A stretch of 64,000 nucleotides of DNA from an uncultured Gemmatimonadota bacterium (lineage in GTDB: Bacteria > JAAXHH01). The stretch spans positions 2,112,001 to 2,176,000 of the forward strand of contig OX638340.1 in assembly GCA_951812955.1 (NCBI GenBank). The letters are read 5' to 3'. Shown here piece by piece: positions 4,716 to 62,304 of the stretch (position 1 is the stretch's first letter; every line of letters starts with the position of its first letter). The notes beneath the pieces are model-generated. The model ran no database searches. It was not told the DNA's origin and worked only from the letters and a program-made list of their open reading frames with translations. Both the position numbers and the translations under genes were made by a program.

Positions 4716-5288
4716 CTACTCCTCGGGCTCGAAGTCCAGGGAAGCGGAATTCATGCAGTACCTGAGTCCCGTGGGCTTCGGTCCGTCGGTAAATACGTGG
4801 CCCAGGTGGGAATCGCATCGCTTGCACAACACCTCGGTGCGGACCATGCCGAAACTGCGATCCGTTTTCTCGTCGATGTTCTCGTCGGCGACCGGCTCGT
4901 AGAAACTGGGCCAGCCCGTGCCCGAATTGAACTTGGTCCTGGACGAGAAGAGCGGCGTTCCGCAACCGATACACTTGTAGATACCGTCTTCGTAGTGCCT
5001 GTCGTATTTGCCGGAAAAGGCCCGTTCCGTGCCATTCTCCCGGGCAATGGCGTACTGCTGGTCGGTGAGTCGCTCTTTCCATTCTTCTTCGGTCCTGACT
5101 ACTTTTTCCACCGTAACAGCTCCTTTCTTCGTTCCGTCGGAAGCGACCTCGACGATGGTCACTTTCTCTGCGGGGCCGGACTTGCCCTGTGCCGCTGCTT
5201 CGTCCTGTTTCGCCATGCCCGAATCGCACGCGGCAATGAAAACGAACGCGGCTACGAACGCGACTACGTTTACAATCATTCTGTACAT
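4716..5288 (-). CDS. msrB: Peptide-methionine (R)-S-oxide reductase MsrB, lipoprotein form.
   Basis: Lipobox IAAC after a hydrophobic leader. SelR/MsrB zinc and catalytic motifs [11 protein letters not shown] ... [12 protein letters not shown] ... [11 protein letters not shown]. Confidence 0.85.
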
Positions 5289-5421
5289 GACACCACCTCC
5301 CGGTCAACGAAGGTACATCTGCAGGCCGGGGCCAGTCGCGACCGGCAGAAACCGGCCGGTACGGACAGACGCAGGCAGGGGCCGGCATGGTCCGACAGAA
5401 ACCGGCCGGTGCGGACCGGCG

Positions 5422-6738: not shown

Positions 6739-7116
6739 AAACCCTGCGGCCTACGGATTCATGGTAAGAAATCCGAAAGAGACTCGCAAGCAAAAAGGGA
6801 CGGGATTGCCCTGGTCCGGCGCAGTTGACAGGGTGCGTTTCCTCAGTGCATTCGGGTGCAGTCCGAACGATGAGACATGAATCGATCAGCTGGATTTCAA
6901 AGATGGGTTGATCTCGAATGAAAGCACAACGGAGACCATATTGCTGAAATTCAATTCGAGATATTCGCGTAGTTCTACACTATATTACATACATCATGCT
7001 CCATCAGTGGCCACGCTAAGACATCTCCGGTGAGCGTCGGTCGGCACATATTTGTTGGAAGACGTCATTGCTTTTATATTTGGGGTATGTCATCAACCCA
7101 CCGCGAAGGAGTCGAA

Positions 7117-7323
7117 ATGTCAGGACAAGATCCACTGGAAGTACCATCGACCCGGTGGGACTTCCTCGTCGAACGCCTGAACAAGATCGACAACCGTCTC
7201 TCTTCCCTCGAAAATGCCCAGAAACATGTCGCAACGAAGATGTGGGTCGTCGGAACCGGGCTGACGACCATCGTCGTTCTCACCGGACTGATCATCAACC
7301 TGCTCAATTACCTCAAGCCCTGA
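7117..7323 (+). CDS. Small single-pass membrane protein, XhlA-like architecture (N-terminal coiled-coil and C-terminal TM helix); hypothetical.
   Basis: The track ORF 7030..7323 is trimmed to the internal ATG at 7117, which is preceded by GGAG. The product is MSGQDPLEV...FLVERLNKIDNRLSSLENAQKHVATKMWVVGTGLTTIVVLTGLIINLL. Confidence 0.4.
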   Translation: MSGQDPLEVPSTRWDFLVERLNKIDNRLSSLENAQKHVATKMWVVGTGLTTIVVLTGLIINLLNYLKP

Positions 7324-7339
7324 TCCGCGCTTCGAAACT

Positions 7340-8824: not shown

Positions 8825-9091
8825 GGAAATGAAATGATAAGAACACAAAGCCGTTACATCAAGTGTTTATACTGGCACTGGATTTTCCGACCGGCCGGAA
8901 CGCACAACAGGTTATGAAGACCGCCATGCGGAACCTGCATTACCCGTACATTCCGGTTCATAAATCCCTGTTTCGACTGGACTGCTCGTTGTATAATCAT
9001 CCCATAACCACTACGTACTGAGACTCGGATAGCCCCATGTCAATCCGGGTGTTTTCAGATCCTGATCCGGCTGAAGAAAGGAAGCCAATTG

Positions 9092-10654
9092 ATGGACGCC
9101 CTTCTTAAATCGAAATCCAATGAAGCCGATCGGTCGTCAGCCAGCTCCGGAGACCGGGAAGCCCTGACCCGTAGATCCTTTCTCAAGCAGGCGGCTTTCG
9201 TGGCCGCGGCGATGGCCGCCCCCTTTCCCGTGCTGGCGGATCCCTACGCACCGCAGTCCAGGAGCGCTGCGGCGGCCGGCGTGCGTCCGGTCCGCGTCTC
9301 CGGCCGCGTGCTTTCAGGCAGGGCGGGTCTGGGCGGCGTCGCGGTAACGGACGGACTGTCCGTCACCGCCACCGACTCGGAAGGTCGATTCGAGCTCGTG
9401 TCCAACACGATTCAGTCCTTCGTATCGATCTCAACGCCCAACGGCTACGCGTTGGAGCAGAATCCAAGCGGCATTGCCTCGTTCTACCGGCCGATCATGC
9501 CGGACGACTCCGGAGAGATGGCTGTCAGCTTCGATCTCGCGGAACTGGACGGATCGGACGAACGCCACGGATTTCTGGTGCTCGCCGACCCGCAGACCCA
9601 GGACGCCTACGAAATGGGACTCTTCCACGCGGAGACCGTGCCGGACGTCAAGGAGACCTCCGCCGCGCTGGCCGGCCGCCGGCTCTTCGGCGTGGGCTGC
9701 GGAGACATCATGTTCGACGATCTGACCCTGTACCCCGAGTACGAGCGGGGCGTGCTTCGCATGGGCATGCCCTTCTTCCAGGTCGTCGGCAACCATGACC
9801 TGGACTTCGGGCCGACCGACGACGGATCCGTCCGCACGTTCTGCCGACACTTCGGCCCCAACTACTATTCCTTCGATCGCGGAGAAATCCACTACATCGT
9901 GCTGGACAACGTGTTCTGGCACGGAGAAGGATACATCGGGTACGTGACCGACGACCAGCTCAACTGGGTAACCCAGGACCTCGCCCTGGTCGAGACCGGC
10001 AGGACCGTGGTGGTCTTCAATCATATTCCCCAGTATACCACCCGTCATATCAGAACCGGGGTCGACAGCCCGTCCATTTCGTCCACGACTGTGAACCGCG
10101 AGCGTATGTACCGCCTCCTGGAACCCTACAAGACCCACGTGTTCTCCGGCCACGTGCACGAGCACGAGCATATCTTCGAGGGCGGGATACACGAGATCGT
10201 TCAGGGCACGGTCTGTGGCGCCTGGTGGAGCGGCCCCATCTGCTGGGACGGCACGCCCAACGGTTATGGCGTCTACGAGGTCGACGGATCGGATATCCGC
10301 TGGCGGTACAAGTCCACGGGCTTGCCCGAAGACCACCAGATGCGGGTCTACCTCCGGGGCAGCGATCCCGGAGCGCCGGACGAGATCGTTGCCAATGTCT
10401 GGGACTGGGATCCCGAATGGCGCGTCGTCTGGTACGAAGACGGCATGCGGAGAGGCGCCATGGCCAGACGTCCCGGCACCGATCCGCTGGCGGAATCCCT
10501 GCACAGAGGGGCCGACCTGCCCGAACGCCGGCCCTGGGTGGAACCGGTGATCACGAATCACCTGTTCTACGCGCCGGTTTCGACCCAGGCCCGGAAGGTG
10601 GTGGTCGAAGCGACGGACCGCTTTGGCCGGACTTATGCATCCGAACTGATCTGA
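9092..10654 (+). CDS. Tat-exported calcineurin-like metallophosphoesterase.
   Basis: Twin-arginine signal TRRSFLKQAAFVAAAMAAPFPVLA. Metallophosphoesterase motifs GDIMFDD, GNHD and GHVHEHEH. The ATG at 9092 is preceded by GAAAGGAAG; the track start is a TTG three nt upstream. Confidence 0.8.
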   Translation: MDALLKSKSNEADRSSASSGDREALTRRSFLKQAAFVAAAMAAPFPVLADPYAPQSRSAAAAGVRPVRVSGRVLSGRAGLGGVAVTDGLSVTATDSEGRFELVSNTIQSFVSISTPNGYALEQNPSGIASFYRPIMPDDSGEMAVSFDLAELDGSDERHGFLVLADPQTQDAYEMGLFHAETVPDVKETSAALAGRRLFGVGCGDIMFDDLTLYPEYERGVLRMGMPFFQVVGNHDLDFGPTDDGSVRTFCRHFGPNYYSFDRGEIHYIVLDNVFWHGEGYIGYVTDDQLNWVTQDLALVETGRTVVVFNHIPQYTTRHIRTGVDSPSISSTTVNRERMYRLLEPYKTHVFSGHVHEHEHIFEGGIHEIVQGTVCGAWWSGPICWDGTPNGYGVYEVDGSDIRWRYKSTGLPEDHQMRVYLRGSDPGAPDEIVANVWDWDPEWRVVWYEDGMRRGAMARRPGTDPLAESLHRGADLPERRPWVEPVITNHLFYAPVSTQARKVVVEATDRFGRTYASELI

Positions 10655-10722
10655 GGCCGGTCCAAGACCGACTCCGAGGCATCCGAACTGATCTGAGGCC
10701 GGTCCAAGACCGACTCCGAGGC
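10639..10722. repeat. Perfect 42-bp tandem duplication (2 copies plus a partial third) spanning the stop codon of the metallophosphoesterase gene.
   Basis: atccgaactgatctgaggccggtccaagaccgactccgaggc occurs twice in tandem, followed by gtccgaaact. The first copy contains the TGA at 10652..10654. Confidence 0.9.
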
Positions 10723-10812
10723 GTCCGAAACTCACGGTGAAAACGAAGAACGGGTCATGAAGAGTCAACCATTCCCGGCAGAACGACACCGCCGGATAAA
10801 AGGGAGAACAAC

Positions 10813-11772
10813 ATGGCGAACGACGGCCTGATAAGCCCCTTCGACATCGATGACGAGGGATACTTCTGGCTCAAGGGCAATCTGCATTCCCACACGACCA
10901 ATTCCGACGGGAAGCCGTCACCCCAGGAACGGCTGGACGGGTACGTCAACCAGGGATACGATTTCCTGTGTATTTCCGATCACTACACCATAACCAGGAT
11001 CGACACGGTCAGCGCGCCGGACGATTTCGTCCTGGTGCAGGGTGCGGAGATCCATCCTGAGAACCCCTTTGGCGGCCAGACCCACCACTTCCTGGCCTAC
11101 AACATCGACGAAGACATGGATTCGAAGCGCATGCCGCCGCAGCACGTCATAGACGAGGTGCGCCGGCAGGGCGGCTCGATCTGGCTCGCCCATCCCCACT
11201 GGAGTTCGGTCAACATCCTCCGGGATACCCTGCCCCTTCACGGCCTGGCAGGCATCGAAGTCTTCAACACCACTTGCCGGTGCGCCGGACGCGGCGAGTC
11301 CTCCGTACACTGGGACGACTGGATGGACCTGCTGGGAAGGCCGATTCCAGCGCTCTCCAACGACGACTCCCACGCCCTCGAGTCGGAAAACCGGGATACC
11401 TACGGGGGCTGGAACATGGTGAAGGTCAAAGAACGCACGGCGAAGGCGATCATCGACGCGCTGGAAAGAGGCTGTGCGTACGTCAGTTCCGGACCCGAGA
11501 TCCGGGACATCCAGTTGCACCGCGTCGACGATATGGGTGATGGGAAACAGGTCGTGGAGGCGAGTATCCGGTGTTCAGAGGCGCAGAGCATTCTCGCCGT
11601 GTTCGATTCCCATGGTACGGAGTTTCGGGACCGGACAGGCCATGGAAAAACCTTCGAAGATGCCACGTTTACGCTGCGGCCCAATGTACGGTGGGTAAGA
11701 TTCGAGATCATCGCCCCGGACGGCACGAAGGCCTGGTCGAATCCCATGGATCTGGCGAAAGTCGGTCGGTGA
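10813..11772 (+). CDS. PHP-domain (polymerase/histidinol-phosphatase-like) metal-dependent phosphoesterase.
   Basis: GNLHSHTTNSDG N-terminal PHP motif, further His/Asp clusters (ISDHY, AHPHW, NDDSHA) and a size of 319 aa. Confidence 0.8.
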   Translation: MANDGLISPFDIDDEGYFWLKGNLHSHTTNSDGKPSPQERLDGYVNQGYDFLCISDHYTITRIDTVSAPDDFVLVQGAEIHPENPFGGQTHHFLAYNIDEDMDSKRMPPQHVIDEVRRQGGSIWLAHPHWSSVNILRDTLPLHGLAGIEVFNTTCRCAGRGESSVHWDDWMDLLGRPIPALSNDDSHALESENRDTYGGWNMVKVKERTAKAIIDALERGCAYVSSGPEIRDIQLHRVDDMGDGKQVVEASIRCSEAQSILAVFDSHGTEFRDRTGHGKTFEDATFTLRPNVRWVRFEIIAPDGTKAWSNPMDLAKVGR

Positions 11773-11897
11773 TACCGCCGCGGACCGCTACAGTGGGCGT
11801 TCAGAACTCGGAGGTCGAATCCCATGGATCTGGCGAAAGTCGGTCGGTGATACCGCCGCGGACCGGCACGGTGGGCGTTCAGGACTCGGAGACTGCC
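11722..11897. repeat. 88-bp tandem duplication (2 copies, 3 mismatches) spanning the stop codon of the PHP-domain gene.
   Basis: ggtcgaatcccatggatctggcgaaagtcggtcggtgataccgccgcggaccg...ggcgttcag.actcggag is repeated with an 88-bp period. Copy 1 contains the TGA at 11770..11772. The duplication is mirrored in the spurious ORFs 11571..11972 and 11400..12041, which show repeated peptides. Confidence 0.9.
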
Positions 11898-11946: not shown

Positions 11947-13581
11947 CTACGGAAGGTCCTGCCGAAGCATGACCTCGGTGAGAACGACGGCCGATGTCGA
12001 CGCATTGTCATCGTAGTAGGTAACGAAGCGCTTCGTCTCATGGGCGTCGTAGGGGGCGAGGTTCTGCGCCCACCGGAAGCCGATGGTCTGGAACATCAGC
12101 CGTGCCCTGACTACGATTCCCTGCACACCCGGCCGCGCGGCGACGCGGTACTGGACCCTGTCGCTTCCGGCCTGGAAATCCCCATCTTCCCGCGCCGCTC
12201 CATGCACCATGATTGCGGCTTCGGCGCTCTCCTTGTCGAACCCCTCGGGCAGCAGGCGGTTGTCCTTGGCGTAGGTGACGGCCGATAGCAGGCCCGTGGT
12301 AACTCCACCTGACCCGTCCGCGATGATCGGCTCATAAATCTGTACCTGGCCGGGGTCGTCGATCACTTGGTAATGCGGCTCGAAGCGGCTACCGTCCGCG
12401 TCGTTGTCGTTACCCTTAATGCTCCCGTCGGGAAGCATGGCACCGGATTCAAACACCACGTCCCCGCCGTCATCACGAACCTCGAGGTGGATCCAGGCCC
12501 TTCGCGACGGATAGGCCGTCGGCAGCTTGTGGCCCGCCAGGTTCGACACTTTAAGATCGATAACGTATTGGTTCTCCGCGCGGGAGACTGCCAGCACCTC
12601 CAATTGAGCTGTCGCAGTCTGCAAGTGCTCCCGCGTCGCCTCGGCGGCGCGCTGAAGATCGCTTGACGGCGCGGTGACCAGCAGCTCGTCCCGATACCTG
12701 TCCAGCAAACGCAACATAAACTCGTTGCCGCCGCGAAACACATGGCGCGAGACATTCTCCCTGTACTCCCCGAGCACCGAGGAGATGGGGGCCGATGAGG
12801 TCTCCGGCATGTGGCAGGACTGGCAGCTTTCGGTCGCCGAAAAGGCGCTGTGTCGCCATTCCAGGTAGGGCGTCTGCTCCGGGAAACGGGCTGTTTCTCG
12901 CCCTTCCGCGTCCAAACTTGTCGTGAACAGGGTGTGGCAGGTCGCGCACAGTTCCGATTCCTGCAGATGCGCGGATGAATCCGGTGTGAAACCGGTGGCG
13001 GACTGCATGATCCGGCGCCGCCCGTCGTCCACGTCGAAGGGCCCGAAGATCTGAGGGTCGGTGCCTGTGCTTGAACGGATCACGAAGTTCCCATCGAAAC
13101 TCGATTCCTCGCCGAAATTGTCGGGCCGGATCTGATGGCAGGTGGTGCAGGACACCCCATCGAGGGCCAACATGGCGCGCTCGTCGCCCTGCCGCGCGGC
13201 TTCCAGGTGTGCGAACACTTCTCCCAGTCCGCCGTTTTCCTTCGCCAGCACACGCGCCATGGGCATATGGCAGGTCGAGCAGGTGTCCTCGATCTCTGCC
13301 CGGGCGTCCGGATGGTCGGTCACTTCCCGGCGTACGGATGCCTGCCAGTAGGGATCCCGCGCCGAATGCGCCATGACGGAACCGCGCCATACGTGCCCGA
13401 TGGAGACGTCCGTTCCGTCCGGACCGGTTATATTGCTGTGACAGGCGATGCACTGGTCCGAAGTGACGAACGTGCTTTGATCCCCGGACTGCGCCTCGAC
13501 CGATGCGCACGCGAGCCAGGCGAAGGCGAGCGGCGCCAGCGTGAGGCACGTCAGCAACCGCCCCGTGTAGTTACCAGCCAT
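11947..13581 (-). CDS. Pentaheme c-type cytochrome (five CXXCH motifs) with a ~280-aa heme-free C-terminal domain; probable lipoprotein or secreted protein.
   Basis: CIACH, CSTCH, CTTCH, CATCH and CQSCH all fall in the first ~260 residues. Signal peptide with LAC lipobox-like cleavage region. The start overlaps the upstream gene by 11 nt, so the two are likely co-transcribed. Confidence 0.85.
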   Translation of the reverse strand: MAGNYTGRLLTCLTLAPLAFAWLACASVEAQSGDQSTFVTSDQCIACHSNITGPDGTDVSIGHVWRGSVMAHSARDPYWQASVRREVTDHPDARAEIEDTCSTCHMPMARVLAKENGGLGEVFAHLEAARQGDERAMLALDGVSCTTCHQIRPDNFGEESSFDGNFVIRSSTGTDPQIFGPFDVDDGRRRIMQSATGFTPDSSAHLQESELCATCHTLFTTSLDAEGRETARFPEQTPYLEWRHSAFSATESCQSCHMPETSSAPISSVLGEYRENVSRHVFRGGNEFMLRLLDRYRDELLVTAPSSDLQRAAEATREHLQTATAQLEVLAVSRAENQYVIDLKVSNLAGHKLPTAYPSRRAWIHLEVRDDGGDVVFESGAMLPDGSIKGNDNDADGSRFEPHYQVIDDPGQVQIYEPIIADGSGGVTTGLLSAVTYAKDNRLLPEGFDKESAEAAIMVHGAAREDGDFQAGSDRVQYRVAARPGVQGIVVRARLMFQTIGFRWAQNLAPYDAHETKRFVTYYDDNASTSAVVLTEVMLRQDLP

Positions 13582-14692
13582 CGCGGAAACCTCCGTCGAA
13601 CCAGTCCCACAACAGGTACATGACGATCTGCGGTTTACGGCTTAACTTCCTGGCGACCGGAACCCGCAACCCCACGTTGAGCAGAATGTGCTGGCGCGTG
13701 TTGAGCGAGACCTGCAGTTGAGGCACGAGGTCCATCGCGACACCGGAACCGGAATCAAGTTCGCGCCAAGCCAGGACCTCGACCATGGGACTCCAGGCCC
13801 GGCCGAACTCGCCATCCGTGAAGGTCCTGCCGATCAGCGCCCTTATGGCTACTTCATCCTCCACGGAGCCGCTCACGGCGAATTCACCCAGCGCCTGGGC
13901 CTGGAAAAAGGCGTCTCCGGGCATAAGCTGTACGATGGCCAGGTAAGGCTCCAGTTTCGTGGAGCCCGTACCGAAGCCGTTTTCTTCGTCGCCGGATGGC
14001 AAGATGACTTCGCCGCCTATACTGAAGGCATGACCACGCCCCAAGTCGTGGTACAGGGCATACTTGTAGCCAAGCGCCAGGTCCCCGAAGCCCAGGTTGG
14101 TCCCGTCGTCCCGCTCAGAATCGCGCCTGCCGAACGGGACCTTCACTTCGATCATGCCCCGGGGGCCGAACCGCTTCTCGTATACCGGCTCGATGATAAC
14201 GGCCTTGCTGTCGTCCGTGTCCAGCGTCAGATTGAATACCGTCTCGTCTTCGGGAAAGGCTTTCTCGGTAAACAGGGGCTTTGGAACGTTGAATTCGCCG
14301 CGTGGCCAGTTCTTGTTCGTGCAGAAGGTGCGGACATTGCCGAGGATAGCGTAGATTTCCTCGTCCGTGAGGGCATCCCCGAATGCGGGCATCATGCGGT
14401 CGAAGGCCCGCACCGGTCCCCCTTCATGGATCACGGCGTGCCAGTCGGGGTCGGGTTCGCGGGAAGCGAATTCGCAGTCCGTAAAGTCCGGAAGTTCCAG
14501 TGCAAACCCGCGCTCTTCGAGCGGACTTCCTCTTCCGTCCGATCCGTGACAGGCCGCGCAGGCCTGTTCATAGAGCTTTGCTCCGTCGAGCTTCGCCCCG
14601 ACGAGCTGGTCGGCGAAGGTGGAACGCTCCACAAACAGACCGTAAAGACTAAACAGTACCACTAAGCATTTGCAGCTATATCGCATATCCAC
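13571..14692 (-). CDS. Monoheme class-I cytochrome c domain fused to a ~250-aa C-terminal beta-rich domain (putative outer-membrane beta-barrel).
   Basis: Signal peptide, then CAACHG with a downstream Met ligand candidate (RMMPAF). The C-terminal half has alternating-hydrophobicity strands (AFSIGGEVIL, LEPYLAIVQL, FFQAQALGEFAV) and an aromatic-rich C-terminus ...MYLLWDWFDGGFRDGW. Confidence 0.7.
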   Translation of the reverse strand: MDMRYSCKCLVVLFSLYGLFVERSTFADQLVGAKLDGAKLYEQACAACHGSDGRGSPLEERGFALELPDFTDCEFASREPDPDWHAVIHEGGPVRAFDRMMPAFGDALTDEEIYAILGNVRTFCTNKNWPRGEFNVPKPLFTEKAFPEDETVFNLTLDTDDSKAVIIEPVYEKRFGPRGMIEVKVPFGRRDSERDDGTNLGFGDLALGYKYALYHDLGRGHAFSIGGEVILPSGDEENGFGTGSTKLEPYLAIVQLMPGDAFFQAQALGEFAVSGSVEDEVAIRALIGRTFTDGEFGRAWSPMVEVLAWRELDSGSGVAMDLVPQLQVSLNTRQHILLNVGLRVPVARKLSRKPQIVMYLLWDWFDGGFRDGW

Positions 14693-17035: not shown

Positions 17036-17061
17036 CTCATGCTCCTTTGTGATTCAGTTGC

Positions 17062-19452
17062 TCAAAATGATCCACTGCCGAGTGGCATATTCACAAACGC
17101 GCAATGAAGAATGACATTGCTGTAGGAGTCAATCGTCTCGCCCGCACGGGGTGTGAAGGTACTTGTAAAACTGCGGCTGCCTGTGACGTTCCCAAAATGC
17201 CTGGCGCCAGTAGGAGCGGGACCGCTACGCCAATTGATAGAGGCACTGGTGTATAGAAACAAATGTGCAGCAATCCCGCCTCCAGTGTTCATTCCGGTTA
17301 TGGTCAGTTTGAGTCGACCGCCGGAGACTTCTTCGAAGGTCACGGACCCGGCGGTGCTCGGATAGCTGCTCGTACCGGAAATTGAAGCAGTACGGCTTCT
17401 CAACATCGGTGGAGGCGGCGGAGGCTCGGTCACCGTCAACGACGCCGTACCGGACTTGCCGTCCACCTCTGCTGTTATCGTCGTGGATCCGGCATTCCGT
17501 GCCCTGGCCAGTCCCGTGGTGCTTATGGTCGCAACCGACGTGTTGCTGCTCGTCCACGTAAAAGTCTTCCCGGTAATCTCCATGTTGTTCGAGTCATAGG
17601 CTGTCGCAGTGAATCGTTGCGTCTCGCCTTCTTCGATCGAACGGGAAGATGGAGACACGGCAACCCGGTCAACTACGGGGGGTGGAGGCGGAGGTTCCGT
17701 CACCCTTAACGTCGCTGTGCCGGATACGCCGTCGACGGTTGCCGAGATCGTCGTGGAACCTGCATCCAGGCCCCTCGCCAACCCAGTTACACTTATCGTG
17801 GCTACCGTCTCATCAGAACTTGACCACGTAAACGTCTTGCCCGTTATCTCGGAATTGTCCGACGTGTGGGCGGTGGCAGAAAACCGCCGGGTCTCACCCT
17901 CCTCGATTGACGCTGAGGAGGGACTCACTGTCACGGTTGCGACCATCGGTGGTGGTGGCGGAGGTGGTTCGGTCACTGTGAGCGTCGCCGTGCCGGATAC
18001 TCCATCAGTCGTCGCCGTGATCATCGCTTCGCCCATTCCGACACCAGTCGCCAGGCCGTTCGCGTCGACCGTCGCCACCATGTCATCCGAACTCGACCAT
18101 GTAAACTCCACGTCCGGGATTTCCATCCCGTCCGACGTCATTGCCATCGCCGCGAACTGCTGCGTCGCGCCTACCTCGATCGTCGCTTCAAGTGGACTCA
18201 CTGACACCGTCGATACCACCGGCTCGGGTGGCGGTGGTTCGGTCACTGTGAGCGTCGCCGTGCCGGATACTTCGTCAGTCGTCGCCGTGATCATCGTTTC
18301 GCCCGTTCCGACACCGGTCGCCAGGCCATTCGCGTCGACCGTCGCAACCATCTCGTCAGAACTCGACCACGTAAACTCCGCGTCCGGGATTTCCATCCCG
18401 TCCGACGTCATTGCCATCGCCGCGAACTGCTGCGTCGCGCCTTCTTCGATCGTGGCTTCCGATGGACTCACTGTCACGGTTGCTACAACTGGCTCTACTG
18501 GCTCGGGTGGAGGCGGTTCGGTCACCGTCAGTGTCGCCATGCCGGATACACTGTCCGCGGTAGCCGTGATCATCGCCTCGCCTGCTCCTACACCACTCGC
18601 CAGGCCGTTCGCGTCGACCGTCGCCACCATCTCGTCAGAACTCGACCACGTAATCTCCGCGTCCGGGATATCCATCTCGTCCGATGTCGAAGCCATCGCC
18701 GCGAACTGCTGCGTCGCGCCTACCTCGATCATCGCTTCAGGTGGACTCACCGACACAGTCGATACCACCGGATCGGGAGGCGGAAGTTCGGCTACGTTAA
18801 TGGTAACCGGCGAACTCGCTATACCGTCCGCCGTGGCGCGGACCGTTGCCGTACCCGCTGCGACTGCCGTGGCAACGCCGGCCGATGTAATGGTCACTTT
18901 GCTGGTATCGCTGCTCGCCCATGAGAAACTGACACCTTCGCGAATGGCGCCTCCAGACGTCCGGGCCGTCGCCGTGAAGGTCACCATTTCCCCAACCATC
19001 AGCTCCTGGGTCGAGGAAGGAGAGATCGTGACCCGGGCCACGGCGGCCTGGGTGACCGTGATCGTCACCGGTTCGCTCACGATGCCGTTTCCCGTCGCTC
19101 TGATGGTCGCCGTACCAACACTTACCGCGGTTGCCCGTCCACCGGCACTGATGGTTACTACGGCGGTATTACTGCTGGACCAGGTATAATTGACACCGCT
19201 TATTACGGCGCCGTCGGAAGCCTTGGCGGTCGCAGCCAACTGTTGTGTTCTGCCCACTTCCAGAGACACCATGTTCGGACTCACTTCGATGCGAGAGACC
19301 GTCGGTGCGGGGGGAGGTGTCGGCGTCGGTGTGGGTGTTGTCGGCTCGGCCGGTCTGGTCGGGGAGGAGTCCCCACCGCCGCACCCGACATTCAGCAATG
19401 CGCTTGAAACCGCTATCATGATGAGACCGGTAGCAATCGACCTGAATGACAT
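17062..19452 (-). CDS. Large surface lipoprotein with about 8 bacterial Ig-like (Big_2) domains, Pro-rich linkers and a distinct ~120-aa C-terminal domain.
   Basis: The lipoprotein-type leader ends ...ALLNVGCGGG. The module V.VSP...V..G.T.QL.A.....G..I........W.SS...VATV...G...AV..G.A.I.A...G is repeated and separated by TEPPPPEP linkers. Three central copies are nearly identical at the DNA level. Confidence 0.75.
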   Translation of the reverse strand: MSFRSIATGLIMIAVSSALLNVGCGGGDSSPTRPAEPTTPTPTPTPPPAPTVSRIEVSPNMVSLEVGRTQQLAATAKASDGAVISGVNYTWSSSNTAVVTISAGGRATAVSVGTATIRATGNGIVSEPVTITVTQAAVARVTISPSSTQELMVGEMVTFTATARTSGGAIREGVSFSWASSDTSKVTITSAGVATAVAAGTATVRATADGIASSPVTINVAELPPPDPVVSTVSVSPPEAMIEVGATQQFAAMASTSDEMDIPDAEITWSSSDEMVATVDANGLASGVGAGEAMITATADSVSGMATLTVTEPPPPEPVEPVVATVTVSPSEATIEEGATQQFAAMAMTSDGMEIPDAEFTWSSSDEMVATVDANGLATGVGTGETMITATTDEVSGTATLTVTEPPPPEPVVSTVSVSPLEATIEVGATQQFAAMAMTSDGMEIPDVEFTWSSSDDMVATVDANGLATGVGMGEAMITATTDGVSGTATLTVTEPPPPPPPMVATVTVSPSSASIEEGETRRFSATAHTSDNSEITGKTFTWSSSDETVATISVTGLARGLDAGSTTISATVDGVSGTATLRVTEPPPPPPVVDRVAVSPSSRSIEEGETQRFTATAYDSNNMEITGKTFTWTSSNTSVATISTTGLARARNAGSTTITAEVDGKSGTASLTVTEPPPPPPMLRSRTASISGTSSYPSTAGSVTFEEVSGGRLKLTITGMNTGGGIAAHLFLYTSASINWRSGPAPTGARHFGNVTGSRSFTSTFTPRAGETIDSYSNVILHCAFVNMPLGSGSF

Positions 19453-39649: not shown

Positions 39650-40711
39650 ATGACGAAAACCGAAGAACGGATCGACTGGCTGCTGCGGTTGCCGGACCTG
39701 CCCCGAACGCCCCTGGTCCAATTGCCTACGCCGATCCACAAGCTCGCCAGTTTCGGCGCCCACCTCGGAGGGCCGGATCTCTGGATCAAGCGTGATGACC
39801 TGACCGGGTTGGCGGGTGGCGGCAACAAGTCGCGCAAGCTGGAGTTCCTGGTGGGTGACGCCCTGCGGTCCGGTGCAGACACGCTGGTCACGGTCGGAGC
39901 GATCCAGTCGAACCACACCCGTCAAACCGCGGCGGCAGCGGCCAGAAGCGGACTGAAATGCGCGCTGCTGCATTGTGCCTGGACCCGGGACGCCGGTCCT
40001 GGATACAGGAAGACCGGGAATATCCTGCTTAGTAATATCCTGGGCGCTGAACTTTACCTCGACGAACGCGAACGTTCCATCGAGGACAAAGGCCACATTG
40101 AGGAATTGGCCGAACATCTGCGCCGTCAGGGACGCAAGCCTTACCTGATACCGGGCGGGGCGTCGGATCACCCCCTGGGGAGCATGGGCTATCTGGCCTG
40201 CGCCGCGGAGATTGTGACGCAGACGCGCGATCTTGGGGTCCATTTCGACTACGTGATACACTGTACGGGCAGCAGTAGTACACAGGCCGGACTGGTCGCC
40301 GGTTTCACCGCGCTGGGAACCGGTACGCGAGTGATCGGCGTATCGGACGACGACGAGGTGGAAATCAAGAAGGCGCGCGTGCTCCGATTGGCAAATGCCG
40401 CACTGGAGAATCTGGCCCTTCCGCAGCGCGTCGCCCCCGACGACATTGAGATCATCACGGCCATGAAAGATTCCTACGGCGTCGCATCCGAAGAGGTCTA
40501 TGAAGGGATCCGCCTCCTGGCGCGCACAGAGGGCATTATGGCCGATCCTGTCTACGAGGGAAAGGCGGTCCGGGGCCTGCTCGACCTTGCGGACCAGGGA
40601 CGGTTCGAACCGGAAAGCCGCGTATTGCTGATGCACCTGGGAGGCGCCCCGGCAGTCCATGCCTACGCGAGCCAGTTCCCTCCGGTGGAGTTCAAACGGT
40701 TCGAACCCTGA
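39650..40711 (+). CDS. PLP-dependent 1-aminocyclopropane-1-carboxylate deaminase / D-cysteine desulfhydrase family protein.
   Basis: GGNKSRKLEF PLP-lysine motif, Trp-synthase-beta-like fold II layout and a length of 353 aa. Confidence 0.85.
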   Translation: MTKTEERIDWLLRLPDLPRTPLVQLPTPIHKLASFGAHLGGPDLWIKRDDLTGLAGGGNKSRKLEFLVGDALRSGADTLVTVGAIQSNHTRQTAAAAARSGLKCALLHCAWTRDAGPGYRKTGNILLSNILGAELYLDERERSIEDKGHIEELAEHLRRQGRKPYLIPGGASDHPLGSMGYLACAAEIVTQTRDLGVHFDYVIHCTGSSSTQAGLVAGFTALGTGTRVIGVSDDDEVEIKKARVLRLANAALENLALPQRVAPDDIEIITAMKDSYGVASEEVYEGIRLLARTEGIMADPVYEGKAVRGLLDLADQGRFEPESRVLLMHLGGAPAVHAYASQFPPVEFKRFEP

Positions 40712-40835
40712 GGGGATTGGGCCTGATCATCCCTGATTAACCCTGAACAACCCTGATCAATCCTGATCGATCCTGCTAAACTCTGATCGCCCCCATCCTT
40801 GACCCTCATCACCGGCCCCCCTATACTCTCCTACC

Positions 40836-47159: not shown

Positions 47160-49571
47160 ATGCTCAAAAACTACTTCACCGTCGCACTGAGAAACCTGCT
47201 CAGGTACAAGGGTTATTCGACGATCAGTGTCCTCGGACTGTCCATAGGTATCGCCTGCTGCATTCTCATTCTGCTGTATGTGCAGGACGAACTCAGCTAT
47301 GACCAGTTCCATGAGAAGCATGACCGAATCTATCGCCTGGTAGAATCCGCCACCATCGCGGGGAGACCGATCGAAGCCGCGGTTACGCCCCCGCCCTGGG
47401 CGCCGGCTCTTGCGAAGGAATATCCCGGAATCGAAGCGTTCACCCGGATCAAACCACCGAATTCCCGCTGGCTGATCCGATATATGGACAAACGTTTTTA
47501 CGAGAAGAACTTCGTTTTCGCCGATTCATCGGTTTTTGACGTCTTCACGCTCCCACTTGTCCAGGGAAATGCCGAAACGGCCTTGACTGAACCCCATACC
47601 GTAGTGGTGTCGGAGTCCATGGTGGACAAGTACTTCGGGGATGAAAACCCAATCGGCAAAGTGATTACCGGCGATGACATCTATGAGTTTACGATCACGG
47701 GTATCATGCGGGACATGCCGTCGAACTCGCATTTTCACGCTGATTTCATGGCATCCTACGCGTCGCTGGCACCGAACAAGCTATACGGCGAGCCGTCCTC
47801 GATGCAGGGGAACGCATTTAATCACACGTTATACACCTATTTTCTGCTGGAAGACGGCTACGGTCCGGAAGCGTTTGAACGAGAACTCCCTGGTTTTCTG
47901 GACAACTATCTGGGTGAAATGCTGAAATCCATCGGCATAGTTGCCACACCCTATCTGCAGCCGCTCACGGATATCCATTTGCATTCCCATCTGGAAGGTG
48001 AAATCGCACCAAACAGCGATATCCGGTACGTTTACATCTTCTCCTCGCTGGCCGTGTTCATTCTCCTGATCGCCTGCGTCAACTACATGAATCTTTCCAC
48101 GGCCCGTTCCGCGCGCAGAGCACAGGAGGTCGGCGTCCGGAAAGTGCTTGGCGCCCAGCGTAATCAACTGATCAAGCAGTTTGTGGGAGAATCCGTTCTG
48201 TATTCCGTAATCGCGCTCGCCGTGGCGATGGGACTGGTCCACGTGCTCCTGCCGCAGTTCAACGTCCTTTCCGGCAAGGCGCTGGCGATGGACTATCAAT
48301 CCGCGTGGCTAGTACCTACTCTGGCAGCCATCGCACTATTGACAGGTGTCGGCGCAGGTGGCTATCCAGCCTTCGTCCTTTCATCCTTCAGGCCGGTTGC
48401 CGTTCTGACCGGCGTGCTGAAAGCGGGCGTTTCCAGTTCACTACTTCGGAAAGTACTGATCACGTTCCAGTTCATCATCTCTATCATCATGATTGTCGGA
48501 ACGGTCGCGATTCTCGATCAACTGGAGTACATGCAGAACAAGAAACTGGGTTTCGACCAGGATCACCTGTTGGTCGTACGCATGCCGGATGAAGAGGTGA
48601 TCAAAGGGTATCCGGTCTACAAGAACGCCGTCCTGCAGTATACTGAAGTCGTAAATGTGAGCTCATCGACCAGCGTACCCGGCAGTCTGCCCAGTCTCAG
48701 CCTGGTAACGCCGGAAGGTGTGGAAAGGGATCAGAGTCCGCTTTACCAGTTGATTTGGACGGACTATGACTTTGTAGAAACACTGGATATCAAATTGGTT
48801 TCCGGGCGTACGTTTTCGCGCGAGTTCGGCTCGGACTCCACCGCCTGCCTGATCAATGAAGCGGCCGTACGCGCCCTGGGTTGGGAAGATCCTGTCGGCA
48901 GAACCTACAGGCTTACCGGCGCTACGGATGAAACGCCGTCTCTGAATGTCATCGGCGTCATGGAGGACTTCCACAACCAGTCGTTGCATCAACCCATCGA
49001 ACCACTGATGATACTGATGACGTCGGAACCATCCGCGTTCATGGTAATTCGAATACAGGGAAGTAATGTATCGCGTGGATTGGAAGTGTTACAGGAACAG
49101 TGGAGGCAGACCTACCCCAGCCATCCCGCCATGGATTATTCGTTTCTCGACGAGGATCTGGAACGGCTCTACCTTGCCGAGACCAGGCTGGGTTCCGTAT
49201 TCATAGCCGGCGCCATACTTTCTATTCTCATCGCCTGCCTCGGGCTGCTGGGACTCTCATCCTTCATGGCGGAACAACGGACCCGGGAGATCGGGGTACG
49301 CAAGGTCCTGGGCGCCACGATAACGAACGTGATCCTGTTGTTGTCCAGGGACTTTACCAAGCTGATTCTGCTGGCATTCGTGGTTGGCGCCCCGGCAGGT
49401 TACTACATCATGCAGACGTGGTTGGAGGATTTCCCATACCGCGTGGAACTGGGCCTGGGCGTATTCGTATTCTCAGGTCTTTCCGCGCTGCTCATCGCAT
49501 GGCTTACGGTGGGATACCAGGCCTTCAAAGCCGCGGCCTCCAATCCGGCGGATGCGCTGCATTCGGAGTGA
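47160..49571 (+). CDS. ABC-transporter permease, FtsX-like family with N-terminal MacB-like periplasmic domain (two FtsX modules, ~800 aa); paralog 1 of 3.
   Basis: MLKNYFTVALRNLLRYKGYSTISVLGLSIGIACCILILLYVQDELSYDQFHEK N-terminus. Two 4-TM FtsX modules, each preceded by a large extracytoplasmic domain. Confidence 0.9.
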   Translation: MLKNYFTVALRNLLRYKGYSTISVLGLSIGIACCILILLYVQDELSYDQFHEKHDRIYRLVESATIAGRPIEAAVTPPPWAPALAKEYPGIEAFTRIKPPNSRWLIRYMDKRFYEKNFVFADSSVFDVFTLPLVQGNAETALTEPHTVVVSESMVDKYFGDENPIGKVITGDDIYEFTITGIMRDMPSNSHFHADFMASYASLAPNKLYGEPSSMQGNAFNHTLYTYFLLEDGYGPEAFERELPGFLDNYLGEMLKSIGIVATPYLQPLTDIHLHSHLEGEIAPNSDIRYVYIFSSLAVFILLIACVNYMNLSTARSARRAQEVGVRKVLGAQRNQLIKQFVGESVLYSVIALAVAMGLVHVLLPQFNVLSGKALAMDYQSAWLVPTLAAIALLTGVGAGGYPAFVLSSFRPVAVLTGVLKAGVSSSLLRKVLITFQFIISIIMIVGTVAILDQLEYMQNKKLGFDQDHLLVVRMPDEEVIKGYPVYKNAVLQYTEVVNVSSSTSVPGSLPSLSLVTPEGVERDQSPLYQLIWTDYDFVETLDIKLVSGRTFSREFGSDSTACLINEAAVRALGWEDPVGRTYRLTGATDETPSLNVIGVMEDFHNQSLHQPIEPLMILMTSEPSAFMVIRIQGSNVSRGLEVLQEQWRQTYPSHPAMDYSFLDEDLERLYLAETRLGSVFIAGAILSILIACLGLLGLSSFMAEQRTREIGVRKVLGATITNVILLLSRDFTKLILLAFVVGAPAGYYIMQTWLEDFPYRVELGLGVFVFSGLSALLIAWLTVGYQAFKAAASNPADALHSE

Positions 49572-50174: not shown

Positions 50175-52589
50175 ATGTTTAAAAACTACCTGACGATCTG
50201 TTTAAGAAACCTGCTCGGACACAAAGGCTATTCGGCGATCAACGTGCTGGGGCTGGCCATCGGTATTGCCTGCGGCGTACTGATCCTGCTCTACGTGCAG
50301 GACGAGCTCAGTTACGACCAGTATCATGAGAAGAAAGACCGGATCTACCGCCTGGTGGAATCTGCGACGGTAGGGGGCAGGTCAATCGAAGCCGCAGTGA
50401 CACCCGCACCCTGGGCCCCGGTACTGGCAAAAGACTATCCCGTAATCGAGCAGATCACCCGCATAAAACCGCCGAACTCCCGGTGGCTGATTCATTACAA
50501 GGAAAACCGGTTTTATGAGCGGTATTTCGTCTTCGCGGATTCATCGGTCTTCGATATCTTCACCTTCCCGCTGGTCCAGGGTGACGCGAAGACGGCACTG
50601 GCCGACCCGCATACCGTGGTGCTGTCGGAATCCATGGCCGACAAGTACTTCGGGGACGAGAATCCGATCGGCAAAGTGATTACGGGCGATGACCTGTATG
50701 AGTTCACGGTTACCGGCGTCATGCGGGACATGCCGAAGAACACGCATTTTCATTTTGATTTCCTGGCCTCCTATGCCTCCCTGGCACCGAACAATCTGTA
50801 CAATGAGCCGTCCACGATGCAGAACCAGGGTTTCAATCACTATAACCTTTACACCTACCTGATGCTCAGGGAAGGAAACACTCCCGAAGATCTGGAGAGA
50901 GAACTCCCCGCGTTTCTGGACAAGTACCTTGGCGAAAGGCTCAAGACAATGGGCGTAGAGGCCAGACCCTACTTGCAGCCCATAACCGATATCCATCTCT
51001 ATTCCAACCTGGAAGCCGAAATCGCGGCGAACAGCAACATCCGGTATGTGTACATCTTCTCCTCCCTGGCCGTATTCATTCTCCTGATCGCCTGCGTGAA
51101 TTTCATGAACCTGTCCACCGCCCGCTCCGCCCGCAGAGCACAGGAGGTTGGCATAAGGAAAGTACTGGGCGCTCATCGGAATCAACTGATCAAACAGTTT
51201 ACGGGCGAGTCGATCCTGGTTTCCATAGCCGCGCTCGTCATCGCATTGGGACTGGTTCATCTGCTCCTGCCGCAGTTCAGCCTGTTATCGGGCAAAACGC
51301 TGGCGATGGATTACCAGTCCACCTGGCTGGTGCCGGCCCTGGCGGCAATTACCCTTGTTACGGGGATCGTCGCGGGCGGATATCCCGCCTTTATCCTGTC
51401 CTCCTTCAGGCCGTTTGCCGTACTGACCGATGCATTGAAAGCAGGGGCGTCTCATTCGCTCCTCAGGAAAATCCTGATCACCTTCCAGTTCGCCATTTCC
51501 ATCCTCATGATCGTCGGTACAATCGTCGTCCTCGACCAGCTGGAATACATGCAGAACAAGCAACTGGGTTTTGATGAAGACAACCTGGTCGTGGTTCGCT
51601 TGCCGGATGAAGAAGCCATTAAGGGTTATCAGGCCTACAGGGACGCCGTGATGCAGAATCCTGAAATCCTGAACGTGAGTTCATCGACCAGCGTGCCCGG
51701 CAGTCCGCCCAGTCTCAGCCTGGTTACTCCGGAAGGTGTGCAAGCGGATCAGAGTCCGCTTTACCAGTTAATCTGGACGAACTATGACTTTGTAGAAACA
51801 CTGGATATCAAGTTGGTTGCCGGACGTACGTTCTCGCGCGAGTTCGGCTCGGACTCCACCGCCTGCCTGATCAATGAAGCGGCCGTGCGCGCCCTGGGTT
51901 GGGAAGATCCGGTCGGTAGAACCTACAAGCTTACCGTCGCTGCGGATGAAACGCCGTCTCTGAACGTCATCGGTGTTATGGAGGACTTCCACAACCAGTC
52001 GTTGCATCAACCCATCGAGCCACTGATGTTACTGATGAAGTCGGACCCTTCCGCTTTTATGGTTATTCGCATTCAGGGAAGCAACGTTTCGCGCGGACTG
52101 GAGGTATTACAAGAGCAGTGGAGGCAGACCTACCCCGGCCATCCCGCCATGGATTACTCGTTTCTCGATGACGACCTCGTGCAACTATACCGGGACGAAC
52201 AAAGACTGGGTTCCGTGTTCATCGCCGGCGCGATGCTTTCCATTCTCATAGCCTGCCTGGGACTTCTTGGGCTCTCATCCTTCATGGCGGAACAAAGGTC
52301 CCGGGAGATCGGCATACGAAAGGTCCTGGGCGCTACGATAACGAACGTTATCTTGCTGTTGTCCAGAGACTTTACGAAGCTGATCCTGCTGGCATTGGTG
52401 GTTGGCGCGCCGGCGGGTTACTACGTCATGCAGGTATGGCTGGAAGACTTCCCATACCGCATCGAACTGGGTCTGGGAGTGTTCGTATTCGCGGGCCTCG
52501 CCGCACTGCTCATCGCCTGGCTGACGGTGGGATACCAGGCGTTTAAAGCAGCCACGGCCAACCCGGTAGATGCGGTGAAGGCGGAGTGA
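50175..52589 (+). CDS. ABC-transporter permease, FtsX-like family; paralog 2 of 3 (about 80% identical to paralog 1).
   Basis: Collinear with paralog 1 over the full length. Confidence 0.9.
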   Translation: MFKNYLTICLRNLLGHKGYSAINVLGLAIGIACGVLILLYVQDELSYDQYHEKKDRIYRLVESATVGGRSIEAAVTPAPWAPVLAKDYPVIEQITRIKPPNSRWLIHYKENRFYERYFVFADSSVFDIFTFPLVQGDAKTALADPHTVVLSESMADKYFGDENPIGKVITGDDLYEFTVTGVMRDMPKNTHFHFDFLASYASLAPNNLYNEPSTMQNQGFNHYNLYTYLMLREGNTPEDLERELPAFLDKYLGERLKTMGVEARPYLQPITDIHLYSNLEAEIAANSNIRYVYIFSSLAVFILLIACVNFMNLSTARSARRAQEVGIRKVLGAHRNQLIKQFTGESILVSIAALVIALGLVHLLLPQFSLLSGKTLAMDYQSTWLVPALAAITLVTGIVAGGYPAFILSSFRPFAVLTDALKAGASHSLLRKILITFQFAISILMIVGTIVVLDQLEYMQNKQLGFDEDNLVVVRLPDEEAIKGYQAYRDAVMQNPEILNVSSSTSVPGSPPSLSLVTPEGVQADQSPLYQLIWTNYDFVETLDIKLVAGRTFSREFGSDSTACLINEAAVRALGWEDPVGRTYKLTVAADETPSLNVIGVMEDFHNQSLHQPIEPLMLLMKSDPSAFMVIRIQGSNVSRGLEVLQEQWRQTYPGHPAMDYSFLDDDLVQLYRDEQRLGSVFIAGAMLSILIACLGLLGLSSFMAEQRSREIGIRKVLGATITNVILLLSRDFTKLILLALVVGAPAGYYVMQVWLEDFPYRIELGLGVFVFAGLAALLIAWLTVGYQAFKAATANPVDAVKAE

Positions 52590-57263: not shown

Positions 57264-60200
57264 GTGTCGCGGTTTCTGGCATGCATGAGCGACCGTGGGC
57301 GCAGCGACGCGAGGCAACCGTGGCGCAGCGACGCGAGGCAACCGTGGCGCAGCGACGCGAGGCAACCGTGGCGCAGCGACGCGAGGCAACCCACGAAGTA
57401 TTATCTCCTGAAGGAGACCGCAATCTTCAGCAAGTCCCCTCTTGAAACAACAGAAACCCACCACCTGCTGGACCGGCTCCTGGCCGAACGCATACTCATC
57501 ATCGACGGGGCCATGGGCTCGGTCCTGCAGGGCCATGCCCTTGAAGAATCCGATTTCCGCGGCGATTCGTTCAAAGACCACCCTGTACCGCTGCGCGGCG
57601 ACCTCGACCTGCTGTCGATCACACAACCGGATCTCATCGAACAGGTTCACCGGCAGTACCTGGACGCCGGCGCGGACATCATCGAGACGAACACCTTCAA
57701 TGCCACGGCCATCTCGCAGGCCGACTATGGCCTGCAGGACCGGGTATACGACATCAACCTGGCGGCGGCAAAGATCGCGAAACGGGCCGCCGCGTCCGCC
57801 ATGGCCGCCGATCCGGAACGCCCCCGCTTCGTAGCCGGCGCCCTGGGACCCACCACCCGGTCGGCCTCCGTAGCCTCCGACGTCAGCGACCCGGCCTTCC
57901 GGTCCATCACCTTCGACGGCCTCGCTGACGCTTACGGCGAACAGGCCCGCGGACTCCTCGACGGCGGGGTGGACCTGCTCCTGGTCGAGACCCAGATCGA
58001 CACGCTCAACCTGAAAGCCGCGCTGTTCGCCATCAACACCCTCTTCGACGAAGGCATGCGCCGCGTACCGCTCATGGCTTCGTTCTGCATCGTCGACGCC
58101 AGCGGCCGCACGCTCTCTGGCCAGACCGTGGAGGCGTGCTGGACGTCCATTCGTCACGGCGAACTCTACAGCGTGGGGATCAACTGCGCCCTGGGCGCCA
58201 CGGAGCTGCGTCCCTATATCGAGGAACTGTCGGCCATCGCGGACCTTCCCGTCACCTGCTATCCGAACGCGGGCCTGCCCAACGAGATGGGCGGCTACGA
58301 CGACACACCCGAGTACATGGCCGAGATTCTGGGTGAATTCGCCGAAGAGGGCTGGCTCAACATGGTCGGCGGATGTTGCGGCACCACCCCTGATCACATC
58401 GCCGCGATCTCGGAAGCCGTCAGGCAGCGAGGGAAACTGCGCGTTGCCCACCCAGGCGAACCCCTGTCACGGTACAGCGGACTGGAGACCTTCACCGTGC
58501 GGCCCGACGGAAATTTCACCATGATCGGTGAGCGGACGAACGTGACGGGTTCGCGCAAGTTCGCCCGGCTCATACGGCAGGAGAAGTACGAAGAAGCACT
58601 CGGCGTGGCCCGTCAGCAGATCGAGGGCGGGGCGAACATCATCGACGTGAACATGGACGAGGGCCTCCTCGACAGCGAACAGGCGATGACCACGTTCCTG
58701 AACATGGTCGCATCGGAACCAGACATCGCCACTACGCCCGTCATGATCGACAGTTCGAGCTGGCCGGTCATCGAGGCGGGGCTCAAATGCGTGCAGGGCA
58801 AAGGGATCGCCAATTCCATCAGCCTGAAGGAAGGCGAAGAGGTGTTCAAGAGCCAGGCACGGCTGGCGAGGCGGTACGGTGCCGCCGTGGTGGTGATGGC
58901 CTTCGACGAGGAGGGTCAGGCCACGGACCCGGACCACAAGTTGGAGATCCTGAGCCGATCCTACCGGATCCTCACCGAAGAGATCGGCATGGATCCGACG
59001 GATATCATCTTCGATCCGAACATCCTCACCGTGGCCACCGGCATCGAGGAACACGACGCGTACGCCGTCAACTTCATCGAGGCCGTCCGGCGGCTCAAAG
59101 CGCTACACCCTCTGGCCAAGGTCAGCGGCGGCGTGAGCAACATCTCCTTCTCCTTCCGCGGCAACGACCACATCCGGGAGGTGATGCACGCCGCCTTCCT
59201 GTATCACGCCATCCAGGCGGGCCTGGACATGGGCATCGTCAACGCGGGGCAACTGGCGATCTACGAAGACATCGATCCGGAATCGCTCGTCATGGTCGAG
59301 GACGTCCTCCTCAACCGGCGGCCCGACGCCACCGAGCGGTTGCTGGAGTTTGCCGAATCGAGAAAAGGAACCGCCACCGAACGAGCGCGGAAGGACGAAA
59401 ACTGGCGCGCGGGCAGCCTGGAGGAACGCGTTTCCCACGCCCTGGTCAACGGTATTGCCGACCACGTCGAGGAGGACATGGAGGAGGCGCTGCAACGGTA
59501 CGACCGGCCGCTCCACATCATCGAGGGGCCCCTCATGGCCGGCATGTCCATCGTGGGAGACCTCTTCGGTGAGGGTAAGATGTTCCTGCCGCAGGTCGTG
59601 AAGAGCGCGCGGGTTATGAAAAAAGCCGTTGCCCTCCTGATACCGCACATGGAGGCAGAACACGGGGACGGCGGTGAGCGGCAGTACCAGGGTACCATCC
59701 TCCTGGCCACGGTGAAGGGGGACGTGCACGACATCGGGAAGAACATCGTGGGCGTGGTGCTGGGGTGCAACAACTACCGCATCATCGACCTGGGCGTCAT
59801 GGTCCCGGCGGAGAAGATCATCGGTACGGCCGTGGAAGAAGGCGTCGACCTCATCGGCTTGAGCGGGCTGATCACCCCGTCCCTTCACGAGATGATCCAC
59901 GTGGCCCGCGAGGTCGAGCGCAACGGCTTCGAAATGCCACTGCTCATCGGCGGCGCCACGACGAGCCGGCGGCACACGGCGATCAAGATCGAGCCCGCGT
60001 ATCACGGACCTACCGTGCATGTGACGGACGCGTCGAGAGCCGTGGAAGTGGTGGGCAACCTGATCAGCGACGATTTGAGACCCGATTACGCGCGGCGCGT
60101 TCGAGACGATTACCGGCGTGTACGCGACACCTACGAAAACAGGACGCCGCGCTCGCCCCTGGTGCCGTTCGCCGAAGCGAGCGCGCGGCAGCCCGTCCTC

Positions 60201-62263: not shown

Positions 62264-62304
62264 GGGCGGTCGTCACATGTTCGCGTGTTCGGTTGACGGG
62301 CAGA

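Follow-up and report, generated by a model that had tools for sequence, protein, structure and literature searches.

Three short tandem duplications in the 64,000-nucleotide stretch of DNA analyzed here (the window), which comes from an uncultured bacterium labelled Gemmatimonadota, run from the last codons of a gene across its stop codon and into the untranslated spacer beyond, and they are best read, with a probability of about 0.85, as products of slippage or microhomology-mediated tandem duplication that have been filtered by purifying selection, the encoded proteins being left unchanged. Two of them, TD1 and TD2, are at the ends of neighboring genes for a metallophosphoesterase and for a metallohydrolase of the CehA/McbA family, and the other, TD3, is at the end of ogt. 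The observations that carry this reading are the anatomy of the duplications, the existence of relatives with a single copy, their recovery from independent assemblies, the abundance of tandem duplication across the clade, a frame bias limited to duplications inside genes and the fit of their positions to random placement; from these we infer slippage as the mechanism, the neutrality of the second copies and the part played by homogenization as against repeated origin.

The metallophosphoesterase gene is an ORF at 9089..10654 on the + strand, with a likely ATG start at 9092 and a TGA stop at 10652-10654, and its orthologs are 520 amino acids long in L001 and others (numbers with the prefix L are handles for the lineages compared). 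The twin-arginine motif LTRRSFLK in the protein, together with its matches to the Pfam families MetallophosN and MetallophosC, fits the label of Tat-exported metallophosphoesterase that a first-pass annotation of this DNA had given it, export being a prediction from the motif. TD1 occupies 10637-10720 and is, as had been claimed, a perfect 42-bp duplication with the TGA of the gene within copy 1, a result that Tandem Repeats Finder (TRF) and offset-match plots both return. Copy 1 (10637..10678, +) consists of the last five codons, for ASELI, the TGA and 24 nt of 3′ untranslated region (UTR), and copy 2 (10679..10720, +) is non-coding with no mismatches to it. Immediately downstream is GCGTCCGAA (10721..10729, +), a microhomology arm or partial third copy that matches the start of the unit, GCATCCGAA, at 8 of 9 positions; in L001, where the TD1 unit is single-copy, it is already flanked by the arm pair GCATCCGAA...GCGTCCGAA.

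The next gene (10813..11772, +; TGA stop at 11770-11772) was identified as an ORF and by the NCBIfam CehA/McbA model NF038032, which its protein matches with 112 bits against a cut-off of 80, and 434 homologs of the protein were found, although public assemblies hold no record of the exact protein. It had been described as having a PHP domain; a Pfam scan of the protein gave no match, and the description stands in the wider sense that the CehA/McbA family is part of the PHP superfamily. TD2 at its end is the stop-containing duplication that had been reported, with the TGA in copy 1, although the unit is 78 bp and not 88 bp, and the copies have 4 mismatches and not 3. Copy 1 (11735..11812, +) starts with 2 nt of a codon, which are followed by the last 11 complete codons of the gene, its TGA and then 40 nt of 3′ UTR; copy 2 is at 11813..11890 (+). 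All four mismatches are within the non-coding half of the unit, in which copy 2 is nearer than copy 1 to the single-copy sequence of relatives. The two phosphoesterase genes do not converge, as had been thought: both are on the + strand, 158 nt apart, and the CehA/McbA gene is convergent instead with a multiheme cytochrome gene (11947..13581, −; ORF and Pfam). In L077, L078 and L081 a 21-nt tandem repeat, present in 2-3 copies, extends across the stop of that cytochrome gene, the number of copies of the 21-mer across lineages L077-L081 being from 1 to 3.

A stop-spanning case had also been listed at ogt, the gene for methylated-DNA-protein-cysteine methyltransferase (62350..62871, −; stop TAG at 62350-62352), and it proves to be a 42-bp unit present twice at 62296-62379. 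The gene-proximal copy (62338..62379, −) has the C-terminal codons of ogt and the TAG, the distal copy (62296..62337, −) has TAA at the homologous position, and the two are identical at 34 of 42 positions by direct count, or 84% by TRF. In TD1, TD2 and TD3 alike, TRF and offset-match plots place the copies head to tail without any spacer between them. A further duplication in the window, 50 bp present twice with 80% identity (5321..5420, −), is in the 3′ UTR of the serine hydroxymethyltransferase gene and does not include its stop codon (5422-5424), downstream of which it begins by 1 nt; 35 nt of it are missing from relatives.

The contigs that encode homologs of the CehA/McbA protein are syntenic with the window, and comparison of the orthologous loci, which the first-pass annotation had suggested, reveals both single-copy and two-copy states. 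L001-L009, which have about 95% protein identity and include complete 3.9-Mb chromosomes, have the TD1 unit and the TD2 unit once each. In L026, a JGI metagenome contig with 97% identity, TD1 is present with two mismatches between the copies and TD2 is absent, a different repeat of 20 nt present three times being in the TD2 spacer. L069-L071, three ENA assemblies from different samples with 95.6% identity, have both TD1 and TD2 with boundaries as in the window. Among the four close lineages, whose gene tree is nearly star-like, the two-copy state is thus present in 3 of 4 for TD1 and in 2 of 4 for TD2, and TD1 and TD2 are copy-number-variable loci not private to the window genome, unstable in copy number between close strains with 95-97% identity. 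The description of the duplications as recent is therefore partly right, since TD1 and TD2 are also found in lineages that are 4-5% diverged and there too the copies are kept alike.

Within a genome the copies are 93-100% identical, as against 78-93% for orthologous copies of different genomes; for TD2, in the window and L069-L071, the values are 93-95% within and 78-85% between genomes, and at the stop of the CehA/McbA gene both window copies have TGA and both L069 copies have TAA. Such a pattern reflects either repeated origin or homogenization by gain and loss of copies. From the sequences at the borders, TD1, with its good arms, may plausibly have originated repeatedly, and for TD2, with 1 nt of microhomology, homogenization is the likelier of the two.

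The ogt junction, for which orthologous loci from 15 genomes were compared (their records being labelled Gemmatimonadetes, Candidatus Latescibacterota or ‘bacterium’ metagenome-assembled genomes (MAGs)), has a comparable history. Between the ogt stop and the ATG of the next gene there are 6-9 nt in L014 and L022 and no repeat, and in most other lineages this spacer has been enlarged by tandem duplications of various kinds that include a stop: L016 and L018 have one of about 15 nt, L024 has 13 nt present three times, and in L019 and L020 there are three copies. The 42-nt unit itself is present about 1.5 times in L010, twice in the window, twice in L012 and three times in L011. At the stop site of the distal copy these four genomes have TAA, TAG, TAG and TTG, so that the stop triplet drifts. 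In L011 and L012 the gene upstream of ogt has a further stop-spanning case, of 21 nt present twice, and other cases are of 25 nt in L022 and of 9 nt present four times in L024. A separate feature of the junction concerns the gene downstream of ogt: the 12-15 nt that precede its ATG include a TGA (TGA-N9-12-ATG; window 62264-62349, −), which is kept in 15 of 16 lineages whatever the length of the spacer. It often occurs as RTG-TGA, with ATGTGA in the window, L012, L015, L017, L021 and L024 and GTGTGA in L016 and L018; in the compact junctions of L014 and L022 it is the ogt stop itself, and L011, with TTA, is the exception. This arrangement may be a constrained translation-initiation or re-initiation context.

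Tandem duplications are abundant in the clade as a whole, which consists of uncultured MAGs labelled Gemmatimonadota or Latescibacterota. With TRF at identical settings throughout (score of 50 or more, period of 10 or more), the window, with a G+C content of 60%, has 14.1 duplications per 100 kb and twelve clade loci have 13.8, whereas two 50-kb pieces of E. coli K-12 have 1 in 100 kb and five shuffles of the window have none; the clade is thus some 10-fold richer than the E. coli sample, which is 100 kb of different G+C content. The spacers around the two phosphoesterase genes hold other, unrelated duplications in other lineages, among them one of 24/25 nt in L001 and L026 and one of 21 nt present three times across the metallophosphoesterase stop in L075. 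In L028 a perfect 16-nt duplication present 2.4 times (GGCTGAAATGGGCGGA; also counted as three copies; about 3800-3850) is in the last metallophosphoesterase codons and shifts the frame, with the predicted protein ending ...AEMGGG on the TGA of the second copy; going by that translation, this case shows a tandem duplication remodeling a C-terminus.

Where these duplications are tolerated was assessed with genes called by an in-house ORF heuristic based on codon usage. Duplications were called by TRF at each locus and classed as in-gene, stop-spanning, start-spanning or intergenic, a MAFFT-based classing of indels having been dropped over gap placement. Inside genes, 10 of 13 duplications have a period divisible by 3 (p=0.0016) and the exceptions are at the extreme ends of ORFs, whereas spacer duplications, with multiples of 3 in 16 of 34, have no frame bias. 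Duplication density per base is about 12-fold higher at non-disruptive positions than inside genes. For the null model, a segment of each observed period was placed at every position and the non-disruptive placements were kept. A 42-bp segment so placed in the window spans a stop with a chance of 0.17-0.18, and a 78-bp segment with one of 0.26-0.29, and the three stop-spanning events, from seven tolerated duplications, compare with 1.05 expected (P=0.067), a window value that is post hoc since the window had been flagged for just such duplications. An unbiased census, which took in 288 kb of flanking sequence from relatives and left out the ascertained junctions, gave 15 intergenic, 2 stop-spanning and 2 start-spanning duplications, for which 15.0, 1.9 and 1.7 are expected, and so there is no enrichment of stop-spanning duplications beyond geometry in the unbiased sample. 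A scan of tandem repeats at stops against random expectation had been proposed in the first-pass annotation, and a lack of enrichment had been named there as the outcome that would speak against a special role of the stops; 2 against 1.9, among the 19 events of these flanks, is that outcome. Independent events of other lineages in the two ascertained spacers include 3 that are stop-spanning against 1.24 expected (P=0.10).

These results point to a sequence of steps. A nascent strand would re-anneal upstream of where it had been, so that some tens of bases are copied twice, in the case of TD1 between the arms GCATCCGAA and GCGTCCGAA. Selection would then remove duplications inside genes unless they are in frame or at extreme ends. 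A duplication that extends from the last codons past the stop would keep the protein, only lengthening the 3′ untranslated spacer, and would be as neutral as an intergenic one; the stop-carrying duplication would survive because the protein is unaltered. In spacers between co-directional genes a conserved leader next to the start would push tolerated events to the stop side. Once present, the arrays would behave as variable-number tandem repeats (VNTRs), with copies gained, lost, homogenized or re-formed, and it is because of such turnover that a duplication would be patchy among related lineages and its copies more alike within genomes. The combination of a slippage-prone genome with a purifying filter, one of the two explanations put forward in the first-pass annotation, is supported by the roughly 10-fold density, the roughly 12-fold depletion in genes, the frame bias and the census.

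The leader invoked here can be seen upstream of the CehA/McbA gene. In the four close lineages the 70 nt before its ATG are 84-93% identical, free of indels and include a GGGAG ribosome-binding site, and unlike this start-proximal leader the stop-proximal half of the spacer is hypervariable. The mild local excess of events on the stop side is likely explained by this, because, with the leader conserved, variation is confined to the part of the spacer near the stop. In the window the leader is at 10740-10812, with orthologous positions in L001, L026, L069, L075 and L078, and its core (..ACGACACCGCC..AAGGGAG..ATG) is recognizable in more distant lineages. No Rfam family matches the leader, which is a candidate 5′ leader or regulatory element.

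Several points weigh against the reading of slippage filtered by purifying selection. The microhomology arms are 8/9 nt for TD1 and 1 nt for each of TD2 and TD3, so that an origin by microhomology-mediated tandem duplication (MTD), taken strictly, is less supported for the latter two. The boundaries of TD2 are identical in the window and L069-L071, yet in each genome both copies share lineage-specific states, and one therefore has to suppose either homogenization or that the event happened again at one site that lacks arms. Three of the four window duplications of 42-78 bp include a stop codon, and the remaining one begins 1 nt past a stop (P~0.03 for three or more among four, again post hoc). 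The census is small, at 19 events, and its genes come from the in-house heuristic. Finally, MTDs in yeast revert about 100 times faster than they are formed (PMC8639346), and given such faster reversion the two-copy state in 3 of 4 lineages for TD1 and 2 of 4 for TD2 exceeds a simple neutral expectation; possible reasons for its persistence are that this particular lineage is biased toward duplication, that the state is formed repeatedly, that strains recombine or that a longer spacer is weakly selected.

An unusual mutational regime, in which replication or repair favors duplication over deletion, could be the reason, in place of selection at each locus, that duplications are so abundant and that two-copy states persist. 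This can be entertained tentatively, with odds well short of even: the roughly 10-fold density holds for the whole window and the 12 clade loci, different independent duplications have arisen in the same spacers of different lineages, and two-copy states recur in several lineages, though such a regime refines slippage under purifying selection more than it competes with it, and the E. coli baseline for the density is just 100 kb with a different G+C content. It is unlikely that, in addition to a genuinely unusual clade bias to making and keeping short tandem duplications, some of the stop-spanning arrays (TD1, TD2 and ogt) are maintained by selection, which could favor longer or uncoupled junctions between closely packed genes, or the presence of a stop triplet in every copy; recurrence across lineages about 5% diverged, copies 93-100% alike and stop triplets mostly retained are what recommends it. 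Very unlikely is the stronger proposal that the duplicated tails are selected 3′ elements, whether in-frame standby stops or elements that lengthen the spacer or act on expression through the 3′ UTR. All three window periods (42, 78 and 42) are multiples of 3, which puts the second stop in frame, the two-copy state is present in several lineages with copies kept alike, and secondary copies usually retain a stop triplet at about 20% divergence (some 9 of 10 by eye, not independent), even where the triplet itself differs between copies, as with TAA/TAG/TGA in L075 and TAG/TAA at the window ogt. Against this, the close relatives L001-L009 do without the duplications and L026 without TD2, single-copy L001 already has an in-frame TAG 12 codons past the metallophosphoesterase stop, and the orthologous distal ogt stop site drifts, with TAA, TAG, TAG and TTG in four genomes; the cases of stop retention are few and non-independent, and transitions from TAA mostly give stops. 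Periods of 13, 23, 25 and 41 nt elsewhere in the clade often put the second stop out of frame, and they rule out a multiple-of-3 rule for stop-spanning duplications. The census, moreover, agrees with neutral expectation. RNA folding of the units and spacers was no better than that of shuffles (z from −1.6 to +1.7), a terminator and promoter scan found no terminator-like site in the spacers, and Rfam and tRNA scans of the whole 64-kb window were empty. The functional explanation offered in the first-pass annotation, as standby stops, 3′ UTR elements or recombination scars, accordingly finds no support from folding, Rfam, terminators, similarity or relatives.

Assembly error, such as contig overlaps left uncollapsed or a tandem placement of strain variants, would be suggested by the perfection of the TD1 repeat and by the absence of the exact junction sequences (24-mer/26-mer), that of TD2 from genome contigs and that of TD1 from metagenome contigs. 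It deserves next to no credence, since separate assemblies have the duplications with substitutions of their own (TD1 in L026 and L069-L071, TD2 in L069-L071, TD3 in L010, L011 and L012), the copies of TD2 and TD3 have diverged, and the arm structure of TD1 is that expected of a biological event; the concern, raised at the outset, is thereby excluded for all three. Nor is there any appreciable likelihood that the repeats are scars or attachment sites of mobile elements, or members of a dispersed intergenic family resembling mycobacterial interspersed repetitive units (MIRUs), REP sequences or MITEs. They are indeed intergenic, overlap stops and vary in copy number, and MIRUs are said to overlap stop codons. 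The copies, however, abut with nothing between them and so are not the ends of an inserted element, and each unit derives from the 3′ end of its own gene. A dispersed repeat family was rejected when blastn-short comparison of the units with the window and with the other units gave self-matches only. With respect to attachment sites, the window has no tRNA gene; integrases were not searched for.

Other repeats and length differences of the window are of various kinds. At 17963-18791, in a gene (17062..19452, −) missed by the gene-calling heuristic, a 270-bp in-frame repeat is part of a large protein with Big_2 domains; the window has 3 copies of it (84% identical), L001 has 6 (100%; 16610-18231) and L003 has 10.8 (99%; 16482-19406), and the protein, judged by these numbers, is hypervariable and probably surface-exposed. 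A 24-bp array of 4.1 copies (98%; 57292-57391) at the 5′ end of an ORF for 1296 amino acids (57264..61151, +) would either encode an 8-residue N-terminal repeat or be upstream of the true start. Upstream of a gene starting at 25303, a perfect 14-bp repeat of 2.5 copies is beside a 20-bp repeat of 3.8 copies (CCGTCGCACTTCTGAGCAGG; 25184-25300), and a 10-bp array of 6.7 copies (CCTGATCAAC; 40722-40788) begins 11 nt past the stop of the ORF at 39650..40711; the CCGTCGCACTTCTGAGCAGG and CCTGATCAAC units each contain TGA. In-frame duplications also occur at N-terminal ends, with 12 bp in msrB (4716..5288, −; window 5242-5268) and 15 bp in a cytochrome c gene (13571..14692, −; window 14573-14607), and these repeats vary, the window having 15 bp more than L003 and L001 having 18 bp more than the window. 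Compared with L001 and L003, the region 6739-7339 has a 470-bp insertion at about 6870, which holds a weak ORF for 98 amino acids (7030..7323, +), and 149 bp are missing near 6720. Three paralogous ORFs for about 804 amino acids are in tandem on the + strand at 47160-55110 (47160..49571, 50175..52589 and 52699..55110).

For a clade represented by uncultured MAGs only, the duplicated loci are of use as strain-level VNTR markers, and as a case study they illustrate clearly the influence of purifying selection on which sites of a compact bacterial genome can retain tandem duplications. For annotators they are a reminder that gene tails repeated past stop codons are real and not assembly errors. 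The roughly 10-fold excess of duplications and the recurrence of two-copy states could be of interest to those who study replication slippage.

Mycobacterial MIRU-VNTR loci have intergenic units of 40-80 bp, with copy numbers that vary between strains, and may overlap the stop of the upstream gene. The duplications described here are like them in having units of 40-80 bp between genes, copy numbers that differ between close strains and overlap with stops. MIRUs, however, form a dispersed family, the members of which are related in sequence and occupy numerous loci, whereas the units of TD1, TD2 and TD3 copy the tail of the local gene and are unrelated to each other. Literature searches for stop-codon-spanning tandem duplications in bacteria, or for the overlap of MIRUs with stops, returned nothing directly usable. 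There is also a likeness to tandem back-up stop codons, as the three second stops in the window are in frame, 14 or 26 codons downstream; unlike back-up stops, they lack conservation in relatives, many cases in the clade are out of frame, and a single-copy relative already has an in-frame stop. The closest parallel is with MTDs and slipped-strand duplication. MTDs have been reported across bacteria (bioRxiv 10.64898/2026.02.28.708716), long GC-rich arms favor them and their frame bias is found only in essential genes, where selection acts (PMC8639346). As in these reports, the copies are head to tail, tens of bases long, reversible, variable in number and biased in frame only inside genes, and TD1 has its GC-rich arm pair of 8/9 nt, which is also around the single copy in relatives. 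They differ in that TD2 and TD3 have 1 nt of microhomology and in that lineages about 5% diverged have two-copy states despite the reported faster reversion. The duplications are real but ordinary: they add examples of a type of mutation already known, which stand out here because the lineage has so many of them.

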